Origin: a virus
Taxonomy: Duplodnaviria; Caudoviricetes
Virus record (IMG/VR): IMGVR_UViG_3300028591_000074
Coordinates: 96,001-160,000 of that record
Strand: one strand, 5' to 3'
Length of the DNA stretch: 64,000 nt
The notes below the pieces were generated by a model that made no database searches, was not told the DNA's origin, and saw nothing but the letters and a program-made list of their open reading frames with translations. Position 1 is the stretch's first letter. Every line of letters begins with the position of its first letter. Positions 32,489-58,233 of this stretch are shown here, in pieces. The position numbers were made by a program, and so were the translations under genes.

Positions 32489-32660
32489 CCGTTACCAAAA
32501 ACTTACAAAAGATTATAAATTTCTAAAAATCTTTATGTTTTGTTCCTGTTTCATTGAATCCGATTTTGCCAAAGCTACTTTCGTTTGATATAACTCTCCA
32601 CAGGCTTAACTTCCCGATTAACGCTCGGTAGGATATGATTATCAGCATTTAATTATACTA
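32489..32660 (-). ncRNA. Putative TnpB omegaRNA scaffold (IS right end)
   Basis: Non-coding stretch between the tnpB stop and the right end, which is the established omegaRNA location. Confidence 0.6.
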
Positions 32661-33915
32661 AATGAAGTTCACCATAAGATTTTAGGTTCTTCGCAGCATT
32701 TACATCCCTATCTTCTGAATATCCGCAATCACATCTGAATATTCTGTCAGATAATTTTAAATCTTTTTTAATCGTTCCACAGCAATTACATGTTTTTGAA
32801 GATGGATACCATCTATTTGCAACTATTAGCGGAATATTATACTTATCTGAGTTATACTCAAGAAGTCTTCTGAAGTCATAAAATCCTTGATTCTGAACAG
32901 ATTTAGACAAATGTTTATTTTTCATCATACCGGATATGTTCAAATCTTCTATACATATAAACCTTGGTTTTCGGTTTATAATATCACTAACAATATGACT
33001 TCGTTGATTTCTACGGATATTGCGTAATCGTTTATTAAGTTTCAATAAAGACTTTTCAGACTTTATAATATTATTAGTCTTTTGGTAACTTCCTCCTTTC
33101 CTATTACTTACATATTTTCTCGATATAGATTTCTGTAATCTACGTTTACGTTTCTCTAATCTACGGATTTTAGAAGATTTGTTTATATTAGCATACTTCG
33201 TAGAATCACTTAATATAGCAAAATCTTTAATTCCTACATCAAGTCCTATACCATCAGATTCTGGCACATATTTCGTAACATCCGTACTATCCTCAACAAC
33301 GACAGATACCCACCAATGCAATCCATCGAAAGTTATTCTAGGATTCATATAAGATGCCAATATCGGAATCCTACCAACTTCCGCAAGTCGAACATTACAC
33401 TTCACATTCCGTCTTGAACGATTTCCAGAATCACATAATTTTTCTATACGAACAGTTGAATCTGTAAATTGGATCTTAAAATTATCTTGGAAGAAACCAC
33501 AATCTGTATGATTCTTCCGGCTTTTATATTTCGGATGTCCTTGCTTATCATATTCAGTAAGTTGTTTACCAATTCGTTTCGCATGTTCAATCTGCTTTTT
33601 CGTATATGGTTTATAATTTTCAGATTTTCGTAGATTGAAGTATCTAATATATGATTTTACAAGATCCTTTATTGCTTGTTTTGTAACATTATTAGATATC
33701 GACTGCAGCCAAGAATATTCTTCTGAATTTCTCAGTTTTGTAAACTCCTTACGTAGTACACTGTCTGAAATAAACCAATTTCCTGAATTAAGACTTTCCA
33801 TTTCCTTGTGTAAAGCCCAATTATAAGCGAACCTTGATGCACCAGCAAATTGGAATAATCTGGATTTCTGCCAGTTATTCGGAAGCAACATCACTTTGAT
33901 CGCTTTGTACTTCAT
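32653..33915 (-). CDS. tnpB: TnpB RNA-guided nuclease, catalytic triad intact
   Basis: RuvC-I GLDVG, RuvC-II IEDL, zinc finger SSKTCNCCG...CDCG, RuvC-III DRDVNAAKNL. Confidence 0.95.
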   Translation of the reverse strand: MKYKAIKVMLLPNNWQKSRLFQFAGASRFAYNWALHKEMESLNSGNWFISDSVLRKEFTKLRNSEEYSWLQSISNNVTKQAIKDLVKSYIRYFNLRKSENYKPYTKKQIEHAKRIGKQLTEYDKQGHPKYKSRKNHTDCGFFQDNFKIQFTDSTVRIEKLCDSGNRSRRNVKCNVRLAEVGRIPILASYMNPRITFDGLHWWVSVVVEDSTDVTKYVPESDGIGLDVGIKDFAILSDSTKYANINKSSKIRRLEKRKRRLQKSISRKYVSNRKGGSYQKTNNIIKSEKSLLKLNKRLRNIRRNQRSHIVSDIINRKPRFICIEDLNISGMMKNKHLSKSVQNQGFYDFRRLLEYNSDKYNIPLIVANRWYPSSKTCNCCGTIKKDLKLSDRIFRCDCGYSEDRDVNAAKNLKSYGELHLV

Positions 33916-34519
33916 CTTCTGTCAACTCCTTTATCATCTTGCGGGTTTTGTTTGCCAGCTTACCTCGAAGTTTGCAACTAAATGCAGTTATAATTTGAAC
34001 TAAATCTTCTACAAGCTCTTGTTGCTCTGTCTTCTCCGTAGTATCTACTACCTCAATATCACAACCATGTAAACTTGCAACATATTCAATAAGTTCAAAC
34101 CCAAATCGAAGTAATCTGTCTTTATATAATACAACTACCTTAGATACTTGGTTCATAGTTATCTGTCGAATAAGTTCTTGCAATCCCTTCTTATTGTAAT
34201 TTATACCAGATCCTATATCTGATATAATTTCAAACGGATGACCTTGTGCAGTAAGATACATAGTCATATTTTCTATCTGCCTGTCTAAATCATCTTTCTG
34301 CTTTGCACTGCTTACACGACAATAACCAATGACATGTTTCTGAATATTGTTTGTACGAATCCCAATCACTTGATTTATCTGATCTTGAGAATAATACCGA
34401 AATCCAGATTCAGCAACATGATGGGGTTTCAATTTGTCTTTCTTATCCCAATCTCTAAGTGTCTGAACAGTTACACCAATAAGTTTAGCTGCATCTCCTA
34501 TCGCATAATATTTAGCCAT
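33875..34519 (-). CDS. tnpA: IS607 TnpA serine recombinase with MerR-like HTH
   Basis: AAKLIGVTVQTLRDWD, GYCRVSSAKQKDDLDRQ, DIGSGIN, YKDRLLRFGFEL. Confidence 0.95.
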   Translation of the reverse strand: MAKYYAIGDAAKLIGVTVQTLRDWDKKDKLKPHHVAESGFRYYSQDQINQVIGIRTNNIQKHVIGYCRVSSAKQKDDLDRQIENMTMYLTAQGHPFEIISDIGSGINYNKKGLQELIRQITMNQVSKVVVLYKDRLLRFGFELIEYVASLHGCDIEVVDTTEKTEQQELVEDLVQIITAFSCKLRGKLANKTRKMIKELTEDEVQSDQSDVASE

Positions 34520-50164: not shown

Positions 50165-51653
50165 TCAATTATTAGATATAGATACTGATGTGTTGTGGAG
50201 TTCTGCTATATCTTCTGTGGTTAATACGGTTGCATACATTCGGAAGTCGGATAGTTGACCTGAGAAATATGCAGTAAATGCAGTTCCTGCGGAATTATTA
50301 CTTCTAGCCCCGACAACTAAGTTTGACCTTTGTTTTAAGGCAGCTGTGATAGTTGTAGTATCTACAAGTGCACCGTCTAAATAAGTTTTCATGGAAGAAC
50401 CATCATATGTACAGAAATAGTGATGCCAATTTGTATCATGCAGTAATGCAATTTGAGAATTGTAAGAACCATTAGCCGTGCTTTGTAATCTGTTTTGAGA
50501 ATGGTTTGTATAGAAACCTAATTGTGTATCTGCATCACCACCGGAAGTATTTAATAATAATACAGATTGCCAACCGGAACTAAGATCTGCACTTTTATAC
50601 CACATACCATAACTCCATTGATTTCCGATACTAAATTCTGATTTACTGATAGCAGAATTTGATCCATTAAATATTGTACTATGAGTATATCTTGGAGTAT
50701 CAGTACTTACAGTTAATGATGCACTATTTGTTCCATTGTATTTATATCCACTTACGTCATAACAAATGCTTGGAGTTCCAACTACTGATCCCGCAGTAAA
50801 AGCAGTATTAGCAGATACAGTAAATGTATTATTTACAACATCACACATGTCTACATTATAATATTTTACAGGCATGTTCAATTCCATACCATACAACTTA
50901 CTTAGATAATATTGTTGGTATGAGGTTGCAACTGCACCATTATGATATTTCGTATTAGATTGCTTTTCACGCAATTCTGGTGATTGCATTGTATACAAAA
51001 CACCATAATTCTTAAAAAGAGTTTCTTGCTTCTTTTTCTTAATGTTATCCAATTTGGATACATTATCTACACCATAACGTGCAAAAACGGTTTCAATGCA
51101 TTTTTGCTTTATTTCAGCATTTTGAAATGTGTATTCAACACCATATCGTTCCAAACAAGTATTTCTAGTTTTTTTCTTTAACTTGATCCGATTTTTGTGT
51201 GCTATCTACACCATATTTTGAAATCAAAATTTGTTTTATCTTTTCACGATGATTCGGATCTTGAAATACATAATCTACACCATAATGATTTTTAGTAGTT
51301 ATCCTTGATTTTTCTTGAATTGATTCCAAACACATTGGGGATGGTACACCGTAATTAGACATATTACATTCACGAAGTTTTACACCAGAACAATCCCTAC
51401 ATGCTAATTTCTTGATTACAGTATGATTCATCTCCAAAACATATGTTTTATATGACATTTCAAGTTATTTACCACAATAATCACACGCACAAATTATTAC
51501 AGCATGGCTACCTTTTGACAAATGTTCAATACTAACATCAATTATGTCACCAACTTTATAACCAATGTAACCCTTAGATTCCAAATATTTCCTATTCGAA
51601 TTTGCAATCCGAACTTTTGCAGTCTTTGATATCAACATATTCAATTTCTCCAT
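50165..51653 (-). pseudogene. Decayed YGV-repeat homing-endonuclease-like gene fused to a LamG/concanavalin-like fragment
   Basis: CDYCGK zinc motif and (K/R/N)YGV repeats; in-frame TAA at 51465-51467; A7 frameshift near 51169-51175; abrupt switch to WHHYFCTYDG...YLDGAL...FSGQLSDFRMY. Confidence 0.7.
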
Positions 51654-52793: not shown

Positions 52794-53999
52794 TTATTCA
52801 CCTGCAACAGTCGATGCAAATACATAACCAACTGCCTTTCTACCATTTCCTGGAAGTGTATATTCGATTCTTCTAAATTCTACATTTGTATATGGATCTA
52901 TGTATCCACCATCAAATACTTTAACTGCGCCAATAATATCAGTAAGTGGGAACTTAATATTTGGTATGGAATAAACACGTGTAACTTTTGTAAGTGCAAT
53001 AGATGTAGAATCTTCTAAAGTTTCACTCGTTAATGCATCTTGTGCTGAGCTAAGGAAGATTGTAGGCGATGTCTGTTCAGGTTTTTCCGGTTTAGTTTCT
53101 ACTACAGGTTCTACTTCTTCAATCGATTCTTCTGTAGATTCTTCTACTGATTCATCAGTGGAATCTTCTACTGGTTCAGAAGCAAGTTCTTCCTCTGCAT
53201 CTTCAGTATCAGAAGTGATATCACTATCGGTATCAATAGGTTCAGGTACAACATCTGTATCGGAATCTACAATATCAACATCGGAATCATCATCAGATTT
53301 CGATTCAATTTCCGTAACAGTATAAACGCCATTTTCATCTTGTTCTGAAATTTCGTAAGTGTCGGTATCTACAGAATCATCTGGAATAGTACCCTTGAAT
53401 GATCCACCAGTTACTGTAACTATAGTTGCGGTATCATCTTCTTTCGAAATTGCTTTGGAGAATGAGTAGATTCCACCACCTTGAACTTCTACGATACCCT
53501 TCTTCGCTACATTTACACCGTGATAATCACCATAAGCTGAAATAGAACCGTCTATAAGAACTAACTTACTATTTGCTTTTGCATTTGTGTAACCTTCTAC
53601 AGATACAACTGCACCTTCACCGGAATCTGGATTCGTCCCAATTACTGCACCATCGATTGTAAGTGTAGATTTCTTTGTTACAGATGCAATTGTTCCAGAA
53701 CCACCTGCCTGTAAACCTTCACCAAATGTAACATGTGTATCTGCACCATCTAAAATGATAGATGGAGAAGCGTTGCAGATAATGTCACCACCGATAAATG
53801 TAATATTACCGGATGTAATGGTAAGTGGAGATTCAATTGTTAAGTTGTAGGAATCAAGATTGATTGTAAGATTATTATTTGTTGAAATATCAATAGATTC
53901 TGAGACTGTGATATTATCGGAAAATACAATACTATCACCATCATTAGAAGAAGCAATAGATTCAAGCAGTTCTTGAAGTGTGCTTACAGTAAGTATCAT
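52794..53999 (-). CDS. Beta-helix-like protein with acidic linker
   Basis: Repeating T/I/G-rich strands, D/E-rich linker, small C-terminal domain. Confidence 0.5.
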   Translation of the reverse strand: MILTVSTLQELLESIASSNDGDSIVFSDNITVSESIDISTNNNLTINLDSYNLTIESPLTITSGNITFIGGDIICNASPSIILDGADTHVTFGEGLQAGGSGTIASVTKKSTLTIDGAVIGTNPDSGEGAVVSVEGYTNAKANSKLVLIDGSISAYGDYHGVNVAKKGIVEVQGGGIYSFSKAISKEDDTATIVTVTGGSFKGTIPDDSVDTDTYEISEQDENGVYTVTEIESKSDDDSDVDIVDSDTDVVPEPIDTDSDITSDTEDAEEELASEPVEDSTDESVEESTEESIEEVEPVVETKPEKPEQTSPTIFLSSAQDALTSETLEDSTSIALTKVTRVYSIPNIKFPLTDIIGAVKVFDGGYIDPYTNVEFRRIEYTLPGNGRKAVGYVFASTVAGE

Positions 54000-54028: not shown

Positions 54029-54460
54029 TCAAATCATGTTTTCCAAACGAATCTGTCTCATTTCATCCCAAATTAAGTTAGACAGTATTCTAACTCTTGC
54101 TTTACGAGATTCGTCTAAAACATCCTTGTACTTATATATAAGGTGTTTTTCCTTTTTTGACACTAAAATGGTTTCTCTTGTGGATTCACGTACATCTATA
54201 TCATCTATATATAACAATCTATCGTTTGCGTAAATGAGGTCAAGATTCTTTCTTGTTTCTGCATATTCCAATTTCTGCTGAAGATGTTTCGGTTCTACAC
54301 CAGTAATGACCCAAGATATGGCTTCGGATTCTGAAATACAATTATTGACACGTTTCATTCTTCTACGTGCCACACCGCATATATACAGAATGGCAGCATA
54401 ATTGCTGCCAAGTGCCTGTACATATATATTAAATTTTGAATCATATATCCAATGTTTCAT
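54029..54460 (-). CDS. Hypothetical protein; N-terminus weakly resembles RNA polymerase omega subunit
   Basis: LGSNYAAILYICGVARRR...EAISWVITG versus the omega pattern IGNRFDLVLVAARRARQ...IALREIEEG (by-eye alignment). Confidence 0.35.
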   Translation of the reverse strand: MKHWIYDSKFNIYVQALGSNYAAILYICGVARRRMKRVNNCISESEAISWVITGVEPKHLQQKLEYAETRKNLDLIYANDRLLYIDDIDVRESTRETILVSKKEKHLIYKYKDVLDESRKARVRILSNLIWDEMRQIRLENMI

Positions 54461-54530
54461 AAATGAACATTATTCAACTTTCTTGCGTATAAGATTATTT
54501 CATATTTGTGGTTATACTTCCCACGGCCTT

Positions 54531-54886
54531 GTTTGACACCTATGTAAGTTAGCATTTCATCAAAACTTCTACCATGTATCAAGCATTTTGACACCTATGT
54601 AAATTAACATGACACCAAAACGATATCGTGATTTCACCGCGTATCTGGCTTGTTTGATACCTATGTAATTTAACATGACATCAAAACAGTAGCAGTTACA
54701 TTCATGATACTTCCTCCAGTTTGATACCTATGTAATTTAACACTGTATCGAAACTAATAGCACGCTTTTGTTTCGATTCGCTTTGTTTGACACCTGTGTA
54801 ATTTAACATTGTATCGAAACTAATATCGGATTTGGAAGTCAGTTGGCAAGGTTTGATACCTATGTAATTTAACATGACATCAAACC
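54531..54886 (-). CRISPR. Array A: 6 degenerate 36-bp repeats, 5 spacers (19,30,31,30,30 nt)
   Basis: Repeats start at 54531, 54586, 54652, 54719, 54785, 54851; plus-strand consensus GTTTGAYACCTATGTAATTTAACATGACATCAAAAC. Confidence 0.92.
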
Positions 54887-55000
54887 CCAAATCACACACG
54901 TATTCAGTTTTGATAGCATATTTACAAAGGTTTAGTGAGTGCTTTGTGGAAATCATTATAGATTTCCTACCTCACTATAAGGTTGTCAAATCAACCCTTA
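54887..55000 (-). ncRNA. tracr/omegaRNA-like scaffold A
   Basis: Anti-repeat at 54907-54930; stems tagtgag/ctcacta, ggaaatc/gatttcc, ggttg/caacc. Confidence 0.75.
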
Positions 55001-55043
55001 TATATAAATATTTCAATTACATGTAACAACCGATCCTTCTGAT

Positions 55044-55585
55044 GTTTGACACCTATTGAATCCCATAGCTCAACAAAACTGTATTAACTGTCATGTTTTC
55101 TTCGCTTAGATTTGACACCTGTGTAATTCCGCAGTTCCTCAAAACTATAATGTATTACCCTTGAGTTTGACTATGTTTGATACCTATATAATTTTGCAGT
55201 CTGTCAAAACCGGTATCTCACCTAAGCCGTTTTCCACAGGTTTGATGCCTATGTAATCTCACAATCTAACAAAACCAAGATGTTCTTGTCGATGCCATCA
55301 AGGAAGTTTGACACCAATGTAATTTCGTAGTCCAACAAAACAGAAACTGATATATGAGAATCCCATGTATTAGTTTGACACCTGTGTAATTCCATAATCC
55401 ATCAAAACTTAGCGAATGTCTGTTCACTTTTGACACCTATGTAATCTCACAATCCAACAAAACAATGAATTGTGTTCTTTCATCTTGATTGTTGTTTGAC
55501 ACCAATGTAATTTCATAGTCTATCAAAATCTTCAGACAAATACCTAATAAGTTTGACACCTATACAATTTACAGTCCGACAAAAC
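55044..55585 (-). CRISPR. Array B: 9 degenerate 35-36-bp repeats, 8 spacers (30,29,29,30,31,19,30,21 nt)
   Basis: Repeats start at 55044, 55110, 55175, 55240, 55306, 55373, 55428, 55494, 55551; consensus GTTTGACACCTATGTAATTYCAYAGTCYAWCAAAAC. Confidence 0.92.
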
Positions 55586-55700
55586 ATCAAATCACACATA
55601 TTCAGTTTTGACAGATCATATTTTACAAAGGCTTAGTGAGTGTGTTACGTGAATCATTTCAGATCACTACCTCACCATAAGGTCGTCAAATCGACCCCGT
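55586..55700 (-). ncRNA. tracr/omegaRNA-like scaffold B
   Basis: Paralog of scaffold A; anti-repeat at 55605-55631; compensatory ggtcg/cgacc stem. Confidence 0.75.
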
Positions 55701-55736
55701 ATATTAAATTTTACGTTACGATTATATTTAGCATAA

Positions 55737-55869
55737 GTTTGATGTATTTGTAATTCCATACACCACCCGGGCCTGTAGTTTGATGTCCTTATAATTCCAT
55801 ACAGTTCAAATCAAAAGTATAATCATCCAACCTTTTATGTTTGACATCTATGCAATCACATATAGGATC
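55737..55869 (-). CRISPR. Array C: 3 strongly degenerate repeats
   Basis: GTTTGA-starting units at 55737, 55778 and 55839; the first two share taattccatac, the third is more diverged. Confidence 0.6.
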
Positions 55870-55961
55870 GTTGATCCGTATGAAATTACAAAGGCTTGGT
55901 GAGTGTGTTACGGATAATTCTGAGACTATCCTACCTCACTTTACGGCTGTCAAATCAACCC
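55870..55961 (-). ncRNA. Scaffold C overlapping the Cas12f-like stop codon and fused to its first repeat
   Basis: Third paralog of the scaffold; ggatc-gtt-gatcc hairpin joins anti-repeat to repeat. Confidence 0.7.
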
Positions 55962-57295
55962 ATTATTGTAATATTCTTTGCCTTGTTATAGGCATGACTG
56001 ATTGTTTTTCCACAATGAGGGCAAGTAAACGATACTTCCTGTGTCCATTCAAATACCTTCGGAATTACTTCTTCTGTACAGAATACTTCACCGCAAGAAC
56101 TGCATACATTCCGGACTGTCCGAAGAACATCTGTCTTTTTATCCTGCTTATCAGTCATCTTACTTGTTGTTACAACAATACCTTCACGTTCTGCCTTATA
56201 AGTAATGAACTGTACCAACTGGTAATAGGACCAATTCCGAAGAAGTACGGGGTAATCATCAAGATCTGACTTCGTTACATCTTCTACCACAATAGCGGAT
56301 ACCTTGTTATCTTTTGCAAACTCAACAACCATCTTACTAAGATTATGATTGTATGTCTGCACATAATTTTTCTCATAGGACTTATGTGTTTCAAGTTTTG
56401 CTAACTTCTTCCCACGACCATGCCCACCATTGGAATACTTCAAAGCTCTCTGAAGATTCTCAAAGTGGATCTGAATATCTTTTCGTTTTGCTACAAGATC
56501 ATTCTTTATTGATCCGCCAATCTCATGTTCATCATCATCTGTAGAAAGTGCGGCAACAAGACATTTATCATATCCAAGTGCAAGCCCCATAATCTTTCCA
56601 TGCTCTGGGATATATTCTTCTGCATCACGCTCAATCTTGACAGACAGATTAAATATAATCTTACCCTTGTTCGTAATCTGAATCGTGCTACCGCAGACTT
56701 TATAATGTTCCGGATCAGTTACAATAGATTCCAAAAGTGACGGAAGGAACTTGTCCGGACCCTTATTCTTACCTGCACCAAGATACAGTTTGAAATGGAT
56801 TCCGTTTACAAACTTAAAGAAGTAGGCATTTACGGTATTTTCCGTTCCATCATCCGTAGTGTAGGTATCATCCCCGGTATAAATAGTAATGAACCTGCTT
56901 GGAACCATAAGTGGGAAATCTCTTTTATAAAATGGTAGATTCCGTTCACCCTTTGCAAGACCATTCTTCAAAGCTGTGGAAAAGTCCTGTTTTACTTTCA
57001 TACCACAGTTCCCGGCCATACCCAAACCCTTCGCCTGTTTCATATCATGTATGGCAGTATTTGTATTACGGAATATCATCTTCATTTCTTCCTTGAAGTT
57101 AGGATCATTGAAGTTCTTATCATACTTATAGTATAAGCACCCAACCTGTGACATGTAAGTATTCAAGATACAATACTGATTATAAATCCCGTCACGAAGG
57201 TACTGATATACTCTATCTCGTTCTTCTTTATCACCTACCGGGAATAACTGAATCTTCTTTGTTGTGATTGTAGTTGTTTTCTTCTGCATACCCAC
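55955..57295 (-). CDS. cas12f: Cas12f-like (type V-F / TnpB-derived) protein, predicted nuclease-dead
   Basis: KNGLAKGERNLPFYKRDFPLM, GGHGRGKKL, TYNHNLSK, RNWSYYQL..FITYKAEREGI, CSSCG...CPHCG. RuvC-I is GLALG (normally GVDLG), RuvC-II VEDV is retained, RuvC-III is SHAYNKAKNI (normally NADxNAAxNI). Confidence 0.88.
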   Translation of the reverse strand: MGMQKKTTTITTKKIQLFPVGDKEERDRVYQYLRDGIYNQYCILNTYMSQVGCLYYKYDKNFNDPNFKEEMKMIFRNTNTAIHDMKQAKGLGMAGNCGMKVKQDFSTALKNGLAKGERNLPFYKRDFPLMVPSRFITIYTGDDTYTTDDGTENTVNAYFFKFVNGIHFKLYLGAGKNKGPDKFLPSLLESIVTDPEHYKVCGSTIQITNKGKIIFNLSVKIERDAEEYIPEHGKIMGLALGYDKCLVAALSTDDDEHEIGGSIKNDLVAKRKDIQIHFENLQRALKYSNGGHGRGKKLAKLETHKSYEKNYVQTYNHNLSKMVVEFAKDNKVSAIVVEDVTKSDLDDYPVLLRNWSYYQLVQFITYKAEREGIVVTTSKMTDKQDKKTDVLRTVRNVCSSCGEVFCTEEVIPKVFEWTQEVSFTCPHCGKTISHAYNKAKNITIMG

Positions 57296-57340
57296 ATACT
57301 CCTGTACTTTTGATTTTCGTATGTTTCACGTTCCATGTAT

Positions 57341-57350
57341 TATAACGATT
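57341..57350 (-). promoter_or_regulatory. AATCGTTATA phage promoter-like motif upstream of the Cas12f-like gene
   Basis: Same motif seen at ~11 intergenic sites in the window. Confidence 0.65.
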
Positions 57351-57381
57351 CTAAAATAAAAAATTCTAATCAAAATCACCA

Positions 57382-58233
57382 CTAAAAATTAGTTATCAAC
57401 ACTTCATCCAATCCAATATTTTCTGAACCCTCTGAACGATACCGCCAATGATTACTATAATTACCTAACTGAATCACATTGTACTTACTGCTCCAGTTAA
57501 TTAGCAAATCATTTGACTTTTCACCATGTTTTAATACATTAGACAATGCAAACTTGACATTTTTCTGATTTAAAGTATCAAGTATATTTAATAAATCAAT
57601 ATCATCCTGTTCCAACCAACCACCAAATCCACGTTTACCATCACTGTAAGATCCTAAAGTGATACTATATGGTGGGTCACAATATACAAGTGAATCAGAA
57701 GTTAAATCTGTAAAATCAAATTCCCTGAAATCTAAACTTGTTAATACATACTTCTTTTCCTTCAGAAGTTTTGAAAAGTCCATAAGATTTTTCGCAGCGG
57801 TTGACGTAAAACATTTTTTTCCAAAGGAGGTATTAAATTCCATAGAATTATTGAACCGGAGTACATTGTTAAATGCGTAGAATGATAAGACTAATAGTAG
57901 CATAGGTTCTTTTGTCTTATTATATTCATCGCGTAATTCCATATATCCATCAGCATTTGCTTTACTTAATTTGAATCGATCAATCGTAGAATTGATATCT
58001 TCAAATATTGTAGATGTTGGTGTAGTCATAATATAATTATAGACTTCAATGAGATATGTGATTCTATCATTTGCATAAATGATGTCAGCATCTACATTTA
58101 CTGCAACATTCATACCACCTGTAAATAAATCAACGAACTTATCAATATGTTTTGGAAAAACCGGAATAATCTTTCCAAGTATTTCAAACTTACTACCCAT
58201 ATAGTTTAATGGGGATTTTACAAAATCTAGCAT
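57382..58233 (-). CDS. dam: Dam-like (D12 class) DNA adenine methyltransferase
   Basis: SPLNYMGSK, FVDLFTGG, RFNNSMEFNTSFG, VYCDPPY, FALSN, EVLITNF. Confidence 0.9.
   Translation of the reverse strand: MLDFVKSPLNYMGSKFEILGKIIPVFPKHIDKFVDLFTGGMNVAVNVDADIIYANDRITYLIEVYNYIMTTPTSTIFEDINSTIDRFKLSKANADGYMELRDEYNKTKEPMLLLVLSFYAFNNVLRFNNSMEFNTSFGKKCFTSTAAKNLMDFSKLLKEKKYVLTSLDFREFDFTDLTSDSLVYCDPPYSITLGSYSDGKRGFGGWLEQDDIDLLNILDTLNQKNVKFALSNVLKHGEKSNDLLINWSSKYNVIQLGNYSNHWRYRSEGSENIGLDEVLITNF

Follow-up and report, generated by a model that had tools for sequence, protein, structure and literature searches.

A phage-borne, nuclease-dead Cas12f1-type protein with several guide modules that may silence host defence genes

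A Cas12f1-type protein without two catalytic residues

The subject of this work is dcas12f, a gene for a Cas12f-like protein, and the guide RNA modules that follow it in a 64,000-nt stretch of viral DNA, which we call the window (positions 96,001 to 160,000 of the IMG/VR record IMGVR_UViG_3300028591_000074). The complete phage is a single virus record of 253.5 kb with a CheckV completeness of 100% and a G+C content of 35.8%. It comes from the sheep gut, and the sequencing runs that contain the stretch are sheep, goat and bovine gut metagenomes. All genes of the window are on the − strand, and a Shine-Dalgarno motif precedes about 60% of the long open reading frames (ORFs), which fits a Firmicutes-type host.

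The coding sequence of dcas12f (55955..57289, − strand) encodes 444 amino acids from an ATG at 57289, and its frame is open from a GTG at 57295, which would give 446 amino acids. As close relatives begin at this ATG and an AGGAG ribosome-binding site is found 9 nt upstream of it, the product is probably the 444-residue form. The upstream region (57290..57381, − strand) also contains a TATAAT-like box; this box and the ribosome-binding site are consensus matches only, and a promoter scan did not rise above shuffled controls.

The ORF scores above the cut-off of Pfam PF07282 (Cas12f1-like TNB). A profile built from 41 members of its clade and compared with solved structures aligns over its full length with RhCas12f (9nzp, E 1.4e-84) and CnCas12f1 (8hr5, E 5.5e-84), while AsCas12f, Un1Cas12f and the Bacteroidota dCas12f (9n9c, E 7.7e-34) are far weaker matches and TnpB structures are matched only at about E 2e-3. 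An AlphaFold2 model (mean predicted local distance difference test score of 84) found Cas12f structures as its best Foldseek matches (top match 8hr5, E 1.8e-25) and Cas12m as a weak one only. With a TnpB/Cas12f fold, a RuvC domain, a zinc-finger TNB domain and a length in the range of 400-700 amino acids, dcas12f is, by homology, a full-length Cas12f1-type protein.

In the alignment to solved Cas12f structures, Ala239 (GLALG motif; codon 56579..56581, − strand) falls under the catalytic Asp of RuvC-I and Ala435 (codon 55991..55993, − strand) under that of RuvC-III. The RuvC-II Glu338 (codon 56282..56284, − strand) and the four cysteines of the zinc finger (CxxC...CxxC) are retained, and the alignment extends to the C-terminal motif and the zinc finger, so that the protein has no C-terminal truncation of the dCas12f-sigmaE kind. 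The original prediction, made from the letters alone, had described a 446-residue Cas12f-like ORF with an intact zinc finger and with Ala at two of the three RuvC acidic positions; both the family assignment and the structure-based alignment bear this description out, and aligning the protein to solved structures does not restore an Asp to the active site. The Asp-Glu-Asp triad is therefore broken at Ala239 and Ala435, and the same loss is seen in 62 relatives.

A clade of dead effectors on phage-like contigs

Among the best 120 database relatives, 62 lack both Asp residues, 54 have both and 5 are mixed. In dead members, the first catalytic position is occupied by Ala, Ser or Val and the third one by Ser, Ala, Arg or Gly, and most of them keep Glu338. 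In a FastTree phylogeny of 119 proteins, 60 dead and 54 active proteins fall on opposite sides of one branch with a support of 100. Diversification is deep on the dead side, and all 60 full-length clusters nearest to dcas12f lack both Asp residues and form a single clade. Compared with three relatives of 97-98% protein identity, dcas12f has a ratio of non-synonymous to synonymous substitution rates (dN/dS) of 0.02-0.045 at a dS of 0.34-0.59; the gene is under strong purifying selection. Because at least 60 clusters share the loss in one clade and dN/dS is this low, dcas12f is not a decaying copy, and the possibility that it is a neutrally drifting exception among catalytically intact relatives does not agree with either result.

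The contigs that encode dead members are large (up to 159 kb) and phage-like, with genes for a helicase, RecJ, thymidylate synthase, tRNA synthetase and integrase, and two of them are IMG/VR records. Across 185,579 species, each represented by one genome, the sole dead member was on one short contig of a Lachnospiraceae metagenome-assembled genome (MAG). The active sister proteins occur in IMG/VR phages and in genomes of Lachnospiraceae and Clostridia, the latter at 36-39% identity to dcas12f. As read from the tree and these contigs, the RuvC site disappeared a single time, in an ancestor whose descendants form a large clade that resides almost only on large phage-like contigs. It is almost certain that the protein is an RNA-guided DNA binder that is unable to cut through its RuvC site. 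A literature search, whose scope did not extend to subscription papers, found no paper describing the dead clade.

Guide modules and their RNA structure

Downstream of dcas12f on the − strand lie scaffold C, then scaffold B with nine repeats, then scaffold A with six repeats. Module C (55839..55963) starts inside the last codons of dcas12f and consists of a scaffold fused to a half-repeat, a single-guide-like unit, followed by a guide segment of 23 nt (55816..55838) and two degenerate repeat remnants (55737..55815). Module B comprises a scaffold resembling a trans-activating CRISPR RNA (tracrRNA), a linker and the first repeat (55551..55699) of array B (55014..55586), in which 9 repeats of 36 nt enclose 8 spacers and are followed by a terminal segment of 30 nt. 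Module A has the same layout, with its scaffold, linker and first repeat at 54851..54999 and array A at 54501..54886, where 5 spacers lie between 6 repeats and a segment of 30 nt ends the array. The original prediction of three scaffold and array modules stands for the three scaffolds and for arrays B and A, but its "array C" is the fused unit with one guide and two remnants. Arrays B and A contain 13 inter-repeat and 2 terminal spacers; the prediction had counted about 15 over its three arrays. All repeats are 36 nt long, their 3′ halves are conserved and their 5′ halves vary from repeat to repeat; the spacers measure 29-31 nt except for three of 19-21 nt. Many V-F1 loci include the adaptation genes cas1, cas2 and cas4. 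Their reported absence here agrees with our search, in which no Cas1 or Cas2 match was found in the whole 253.5-kb genome (Cas4 was not searched).

Relatives with 47-98% protein identity have two to four scaffold and array modules each. L001 has two scaffolds, L005 and L006 have three or four, and L004 has four, as does L061, whose protein is 47% identical. In each of the more distant clade members L248, L249 and L250, one module precedes the effector gene and another follows it. The upstream one is a single-repeat scaffold and guide just before the effector gene (L248:4494-4647, L249:4822-4929 and L250:4667-4831).

RNAalifold, run on 21 scaffold and first-repeat units, predicts a common fold of three helices. 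One is a hairpin at the 5′ end and one a long-range stem; in the third, the scaffold is paired with the 3′ half of the repeat. To these we added a pseudoknot between the loop of the 5′ hairpin and the last bases of the repeat, which is 100% paired and includes 3 covarying pairs. Over 27 pairs, 97.5% of the alignment cells hold a standard base pair, compared to 34-39% when the partners are slid by 1-3 columns. The arrays are thus accompanied by a tracrRNA-like scaffold whose pairing with the repeat is supported by compensatory changes, which occur at 10 pairs of the scaffold-repeat structure. By eye, a short stretch near the 3′ end of each scaffold is also complementary to the 5′ end of the repeats in the array belonging to it.

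Inheritance of the spacers and presence of the arrays in an RNA library

The window has five spacer families in common with its close relatives, and L005 has about 20 in common with L006. Over 37 locus pairs, shared spacers differ at 0.8% of positions 1-10, 3.6% of positions 11-20 and 5.3% of positions 21-30, compared to 27-41% of the synonymous sites of the adjacent gene. Shared spacers change far more slowly than synonymous sites, and this long-term conservation of specific guides argues for stable, important targets. Array content varies between lineages. In a goat-gut strain with 95-99% identity, 193 other letters stand in place of 194 nt of array A (window 54687-54882, about three repeat-spacer units); blocks of spacers are swapped between strains. 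The G+C content of the spacers (37.5%) is not different from the 35.8% of the phage.

Metatranscriptome contigs from two runs of one sheep-gut sample are identical to the window at 54521-54985, 55225-55691, 55768-55957 and 57145-57428. These contigs place the array and scaffold region in an RNA library, but they give no strand, ends or level, and carry-over of DNA is possible. No RNA contig covers the body of the dcas12f ORF, and this lack of cover is not evidence. Taken together, (i) the missing Asp residues, (ii) the dead clade, (iii) the selection on the gene, (iv) the covariation in the RNA and (v) the array region in metatranscriptome contigs support the original proposal of a nuclease-dead, RNA-guided binder.

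Candidate targets of the guides

The phage's own genome has no match to the spacers at up to 27% mismatches, nor to spacer prefixes of at least 11 nt beyond chance. The single 11-nt prefix match found in this self-search equals the chance expectation, and autoregulation through a seed in the promoter of dcas12f is therefore unsupported at this length. INPHARED phages and PLSDB plasmids yielded no spacer target. An exact search of IMG/VR with six spacers recovered nothing beyond the arrays themselves, and one spacer searched in JGI metagenomes found no target. The 19-nt prefix of spacer B5 had 103 matches in the JGI metagenomes, in unrelated genes from many habitats and none in the AbiL-like gene described below. 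The window arrays had no significant match in 401 Lachnospiraceae and 399 Clostridia genomes; this search is insensitive, as it scores two candidates per genome only and missed the B5 match. Two resemblances were judged to be due to chance: that of spacer A2 to a gene for a repetitive protein, and that of spacer A3 to the start of rpsB (27 of 31 nt), for which chance predicts about 0.4 occurrences among 401 genomes and which lacks a T-rich flank. The spacers of L061 had no match in the MAG with which it was binned.

The large array of L005 had one match in the 401 Lachnospiraceae genomes, in a rumen MAG. At this site (site 1), the first 26 nt of a spacer that L005 and L006 have in common agree with the MAG at 25 positions, starting from the first base and next to a TTTG flank; the match is seen in two alleles and the flank is conserved. 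Taken alone, site 1 is a lead only, as chance would produce about 0.26 such matches in the genome searches as a whole. No other spacer match lies on its 40-kb contig.

Site 1 lies in an ORF of 178 amino acids that overlaps by 4 nt the end of an ORF for a 394-residue ATPase (PADLOC AbiLi, E 1.5e-41; Pfam AAA_21), beside a type I restriction-modification gene. The 178-residue family has more than 1000 proteins, and in the alleles examined its gene always follows that of the ATPase. This AbiL-like cassette is found in rumen Lachnospiraceae DNA and in various genomic contexts, with a Tn916-type excisionase, a CI-type repressor, a sigma-like gene, a type I restriction-modification gene or a DNA methylase. 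The pair at L267:1335-3037 and its relatives, a 389-residue AAA_21/AbiLi-type ATPase with the 178-residue partner, is likewise widespread and occurs in many genomic contexts. Ten IMG/VR viral contigs carry relatives of the cassette; these viral alleles are 60-71% identical and have no match to the spacers.

In a follow-up, 104 spacer-like segments were compared with fetched alleles of the 178-residue gene. The family of spacer B5, which includes the window spacer at 55276..55305 (− strand), matches a different site of this gene (site 2, in its 3′ part), antisense, over 25-26 of 30 nt from the first base. The B5 family is unrelated to the spacer family of site 1. The score of its best member was reached by none of 100 shuffled spacer sets. 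Read in the frame of the gene, the spacers agree at 8-9 of 9-10 protein residues, compared to 6-7 in shuffles, and several mismatches fall on third codon positions. A window spacer and a second spacer of close relatives thus both match one and the same 178-residue gene, a correspondence that is new.

Proposed function and alternatives

We consider the best explanation to be RNA-guided binding without cutting, which would silence defence genes of the host or of mobile elements during infection, and give it a probability of roughly 0.6. Silencing of defence genes is the most likely function because the only family of targets to which guides could be assigned is a putative defence cassette. The following model can be drawn. 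A jumbo phage of a ruminant-gut, Firmicutes-type host would produce a full-length Cas12f1-type effector and load it with CRISPR RNAs from short arrays, each headed by its own tracr-like scaffold that is predicted to pair with the 3′ half of the repeat and to form a pseudoknot with its last bases; module C would act as a natural fused single guide. The resulting ribonucleoprotein may then bind matching DNA without cutting it. Its guides appear to be inherited and kept by selection, not freshly acquired, and one guide family of the window, with a second one in close relatives, would aim at the two-gene AbiL-like abortive-infection cassette of rumen Lachnospiraceae or of mobile elements. Formation of the ribonucleoprotein, binding without cleavage, repression and a benefit to the phage are what we infer from sequence. 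A wider version of this model, somewhat short of an even chance in our judgement, is that of a virus-owned CRISPR interference system, in which inherited, selection-kept guide sets spread over several tracr and array modules silence anti-phage cassettes, here the AbiL-like pair, throughout a widespread clade. With respect to the original suggestion that host, competitor or self DNA is bound, self is excluded at the levels tested, and a defence gene of the host or of a mobile element is a likely target for one guide family.

Several observations weigh against silencing of defence genes. The window's own B5 has five mismatches to the best alleles, its score taken alone was reached by 15 of 100 shuffled sets, and an exactly matching allele of the 178-residue gene was not found among those compared. 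A candidate target is available for only one of about 16 window guides. No single protospacer-adjacent motif (PAM) emerges from the two flanks, TTTG and TATA, and the nearest solved Cas12f relatives use C-rich PAMs. The 178-residue protein has no Pfam, PADLOC or NCBIfam match, so that a role in defence depends on its ATPase partner and on weak atlas leads (RloB, DUF4276). Timing presents a further difficulty, as silencing after infection leaves in place the defence protein that has already been made, unless the cassette is induced or resides on an induced element.

The closest competitor to silencing of defence genes, which we regard as unlikely, is competition between mobile elements, in which the guides aim at prophages, integrative and conjugative elements or satellites that carry the AbiL-like cassette among other genes, and binding blocks the expression or replication of these elements and not host chromosomal immunity as such. 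The varied mobile contexts of the cassette and its relatives on the ten viral contigs agree with this idea, but the viral alleles are too diverged to show a spacer match and the six spacers searched in IMG/VR had no exact match outside arrays. It also overlaps with the explanation that we favour, from which it is hard to separate by sequence alone. Less probable again is a role as a general transcription factor, guided by RNA, that adjusts the physiology of the host or the phage's own programme in the manner of TldR or dCas12f-sigmaE, the AbiL-like matches being incidental. Dead relatives of TnpB and Cas12f are known regulators (PMC13472631; 10.1101/2023.11.30.569447), and spacer A3, with its likeness to the rpsB start, contains a ribosome-binding site and an ATG. 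This likeness, however, is at the level of chance, no spacer or prefix of 11 nt or longer matches the phage genome beyond chance, and no sigma or other conserved partner gene adjoins the effector across the clade.

Damage to or interference with DNA, by recruitment of another nuclease or a helicase or by residual activity, seems very improbable: although most members retain Glu338 and three distant loci have a UvrD-type helicase gene near the effector, Ala or Ser takes the place of two of the three metal-binding carboxylates across the clade, and the helicase gene is not adjacent in the window or in most loci. We give marginally less credence still to a decoy or dominant-negative anti-CRISPR, in which the dead protein or its repeats would soak up host Cas12f machinery or RNAs. 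Cas12f acts as a dimer (PMC13186708), and the genomes of Lachnospiraceae and Clostridia do encode active relatives, but the identity to these host-type proteins is low, and a decoy has no need of spacers that are kept by selection and resemble a specific gene.

Surroundings of the locus

Directly upstream of dcas12f is a gene for a D12-class (Dam-type) N6-adenine DNA methyltransferase (57382-58233, − strand; Pfam E 1.2e-32); the other neighbours are ORFs without a family match. In L004, whose effector is 98% identical, a DUF6011 ORF and not the methyltransferase occupies this slot. No sigma gene that would form an operon with an extracytoplasmic function sigma factor and/or a helix-turn-helix protein was seen at the window locus or at those of the relatives, and among the clade loci examined no conserved partner gene, sigma or other, adjoins the effector. 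A downstream ORF of 143 amino acids was rejected as an omega-like partner, as it has no family match, is missing from distant loci and, in a close relative, is placed after a different backbone gene. The dcas12f and array cassette flanks opposite sides of a conserved 173-residue backbone gene in this phage (window 58423-58944) and in an L005-type phage (L060:3018-3497), which means that the cassette has moved or that the region was rearranged.

At 32653-34519 (− strand), the window contains an IS607-type pair that consists of a serine recombinase with a MerR helix-turn-helix domain (33875-34519) and a TnpB of 420 amino acids (32653-33915), whose Asp-Glu-Asp triad is intact and which is unrelated to the dead Cas12f at the BLAST level. 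A third TNB-domain protein of the phage, a TnpB-like ORF of 416 amino acids that is apparently catalytically intact, lies outside the window at about 221.7 kb of the genome (L264:1417-2667). An ORF of 401 amino acids (52794-53999, − strand) has a long acidic tract rich in Asp, Glu and Ser that derives from tandem repeats of 12-24 nt, with no family match, and the N-terminus of the product of another ORF (50165-51154, − strand) matches phage homing-endonuclease families (PHROG, E 3e-9). The UvrD-type helicase genes mentioned above lie a few genes from the dead effector at L001:508-2550, L248:6651-8726 and the P0059 locus, and in L001 a protein with an RNA polymerase alpha C-terminal domain is encoded two genes upstream.

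Comparison with known systems

The closest known proteins are CnCas12f1 (8hr5) and RhCas12f1 (9nzp), active type V-F1 nucleases of Clostridia, which share with dcas12f homology over the full length (about E 1e-84), the domain order, the zinc finger, the use of a tracrRNA with CRISPR repeats and a Firmicutes setting. In contrast to these systems, dcas12f has lost both catalytic Asp residues, is encoded by a phage without an adaptation module, and is accompanied by several tracr and array modules instead of one, with repeats that differ within an array. The dCas12f-sigmaE of Bacteroidota and a CRISPR-linked dCas12f cluster (PMC13472631; PDB 9n9c) are likewise nuclease-dead Cas12f derivatives with RNA-guided DNA binding. 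The dCas12f proteins of Hoffmann et al., however, are C-terminally truncated, chromosomal, found in Bacteroidota, mostly without arrays, and paired with a sigma factor for gene activation (PMC13472631). As the phage protein is full length with point losses, phage-borne, without a sigma neighbour and much nearer to the active Cn and Rh Cas12f1 (E 1e-84 compared to 8e-34), it was inactivated independently, in the Cn/Rh Cas12f1 lineage. TldR proteins (10.1101/2023.11.30.569447; PMC13622181), some of them on prophages, also combine a dead RuvC with a phage link and with guide-directed repression that was proposed or shown, and their guide scaffold overlaps the 3′ end of the gene as module C does here. 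They differ in descending from TnpB, in having one omega-type guide and no arrays, and in their known targets, which are fliC or opp promoters and not defence genes; the nearest relatives of dcas12f are Cas12f1 proteins, and arrays are present.

If silencing of defence genes is the true function, programmable, multiplexed shutdown of host immunity genes by phages would form a new class of anti-defence beside protein and RNA anti-CRISPRs, one that is RNA-guided and works by repression and not by cutting. It would also constitute a third independent route from TnpB and Cas12f nucleases to RNA-guided regulators and provide a natural, compact (444 amino acids) DNA binder with a multi-guide architecture, and the spacer sets could be used to map the defence genes that are important to rumen phages. 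The multi-tracr layout and the divergent repeats within an array show how a guide locus evolves without adaptation machinery.

Cas12m (type V-M) and type IV-A systems (PMC10442227; PMC11013384) similarly provide protection or competition by binding, as a transcriptional roadblock, and not by cutting. They belong to other lineages, have no tracrRNA and are encoded by hosts or plasmids for defence. The vibriophage ICP1 carries a type I-F CRISPR-Cas system with spacers aimed at the PLE defence island, an anti-phage element of its host. There, an active nuclease complex with an adaptation module destroys the target, whereas the phage effector described here is dead and its guides are inherited.

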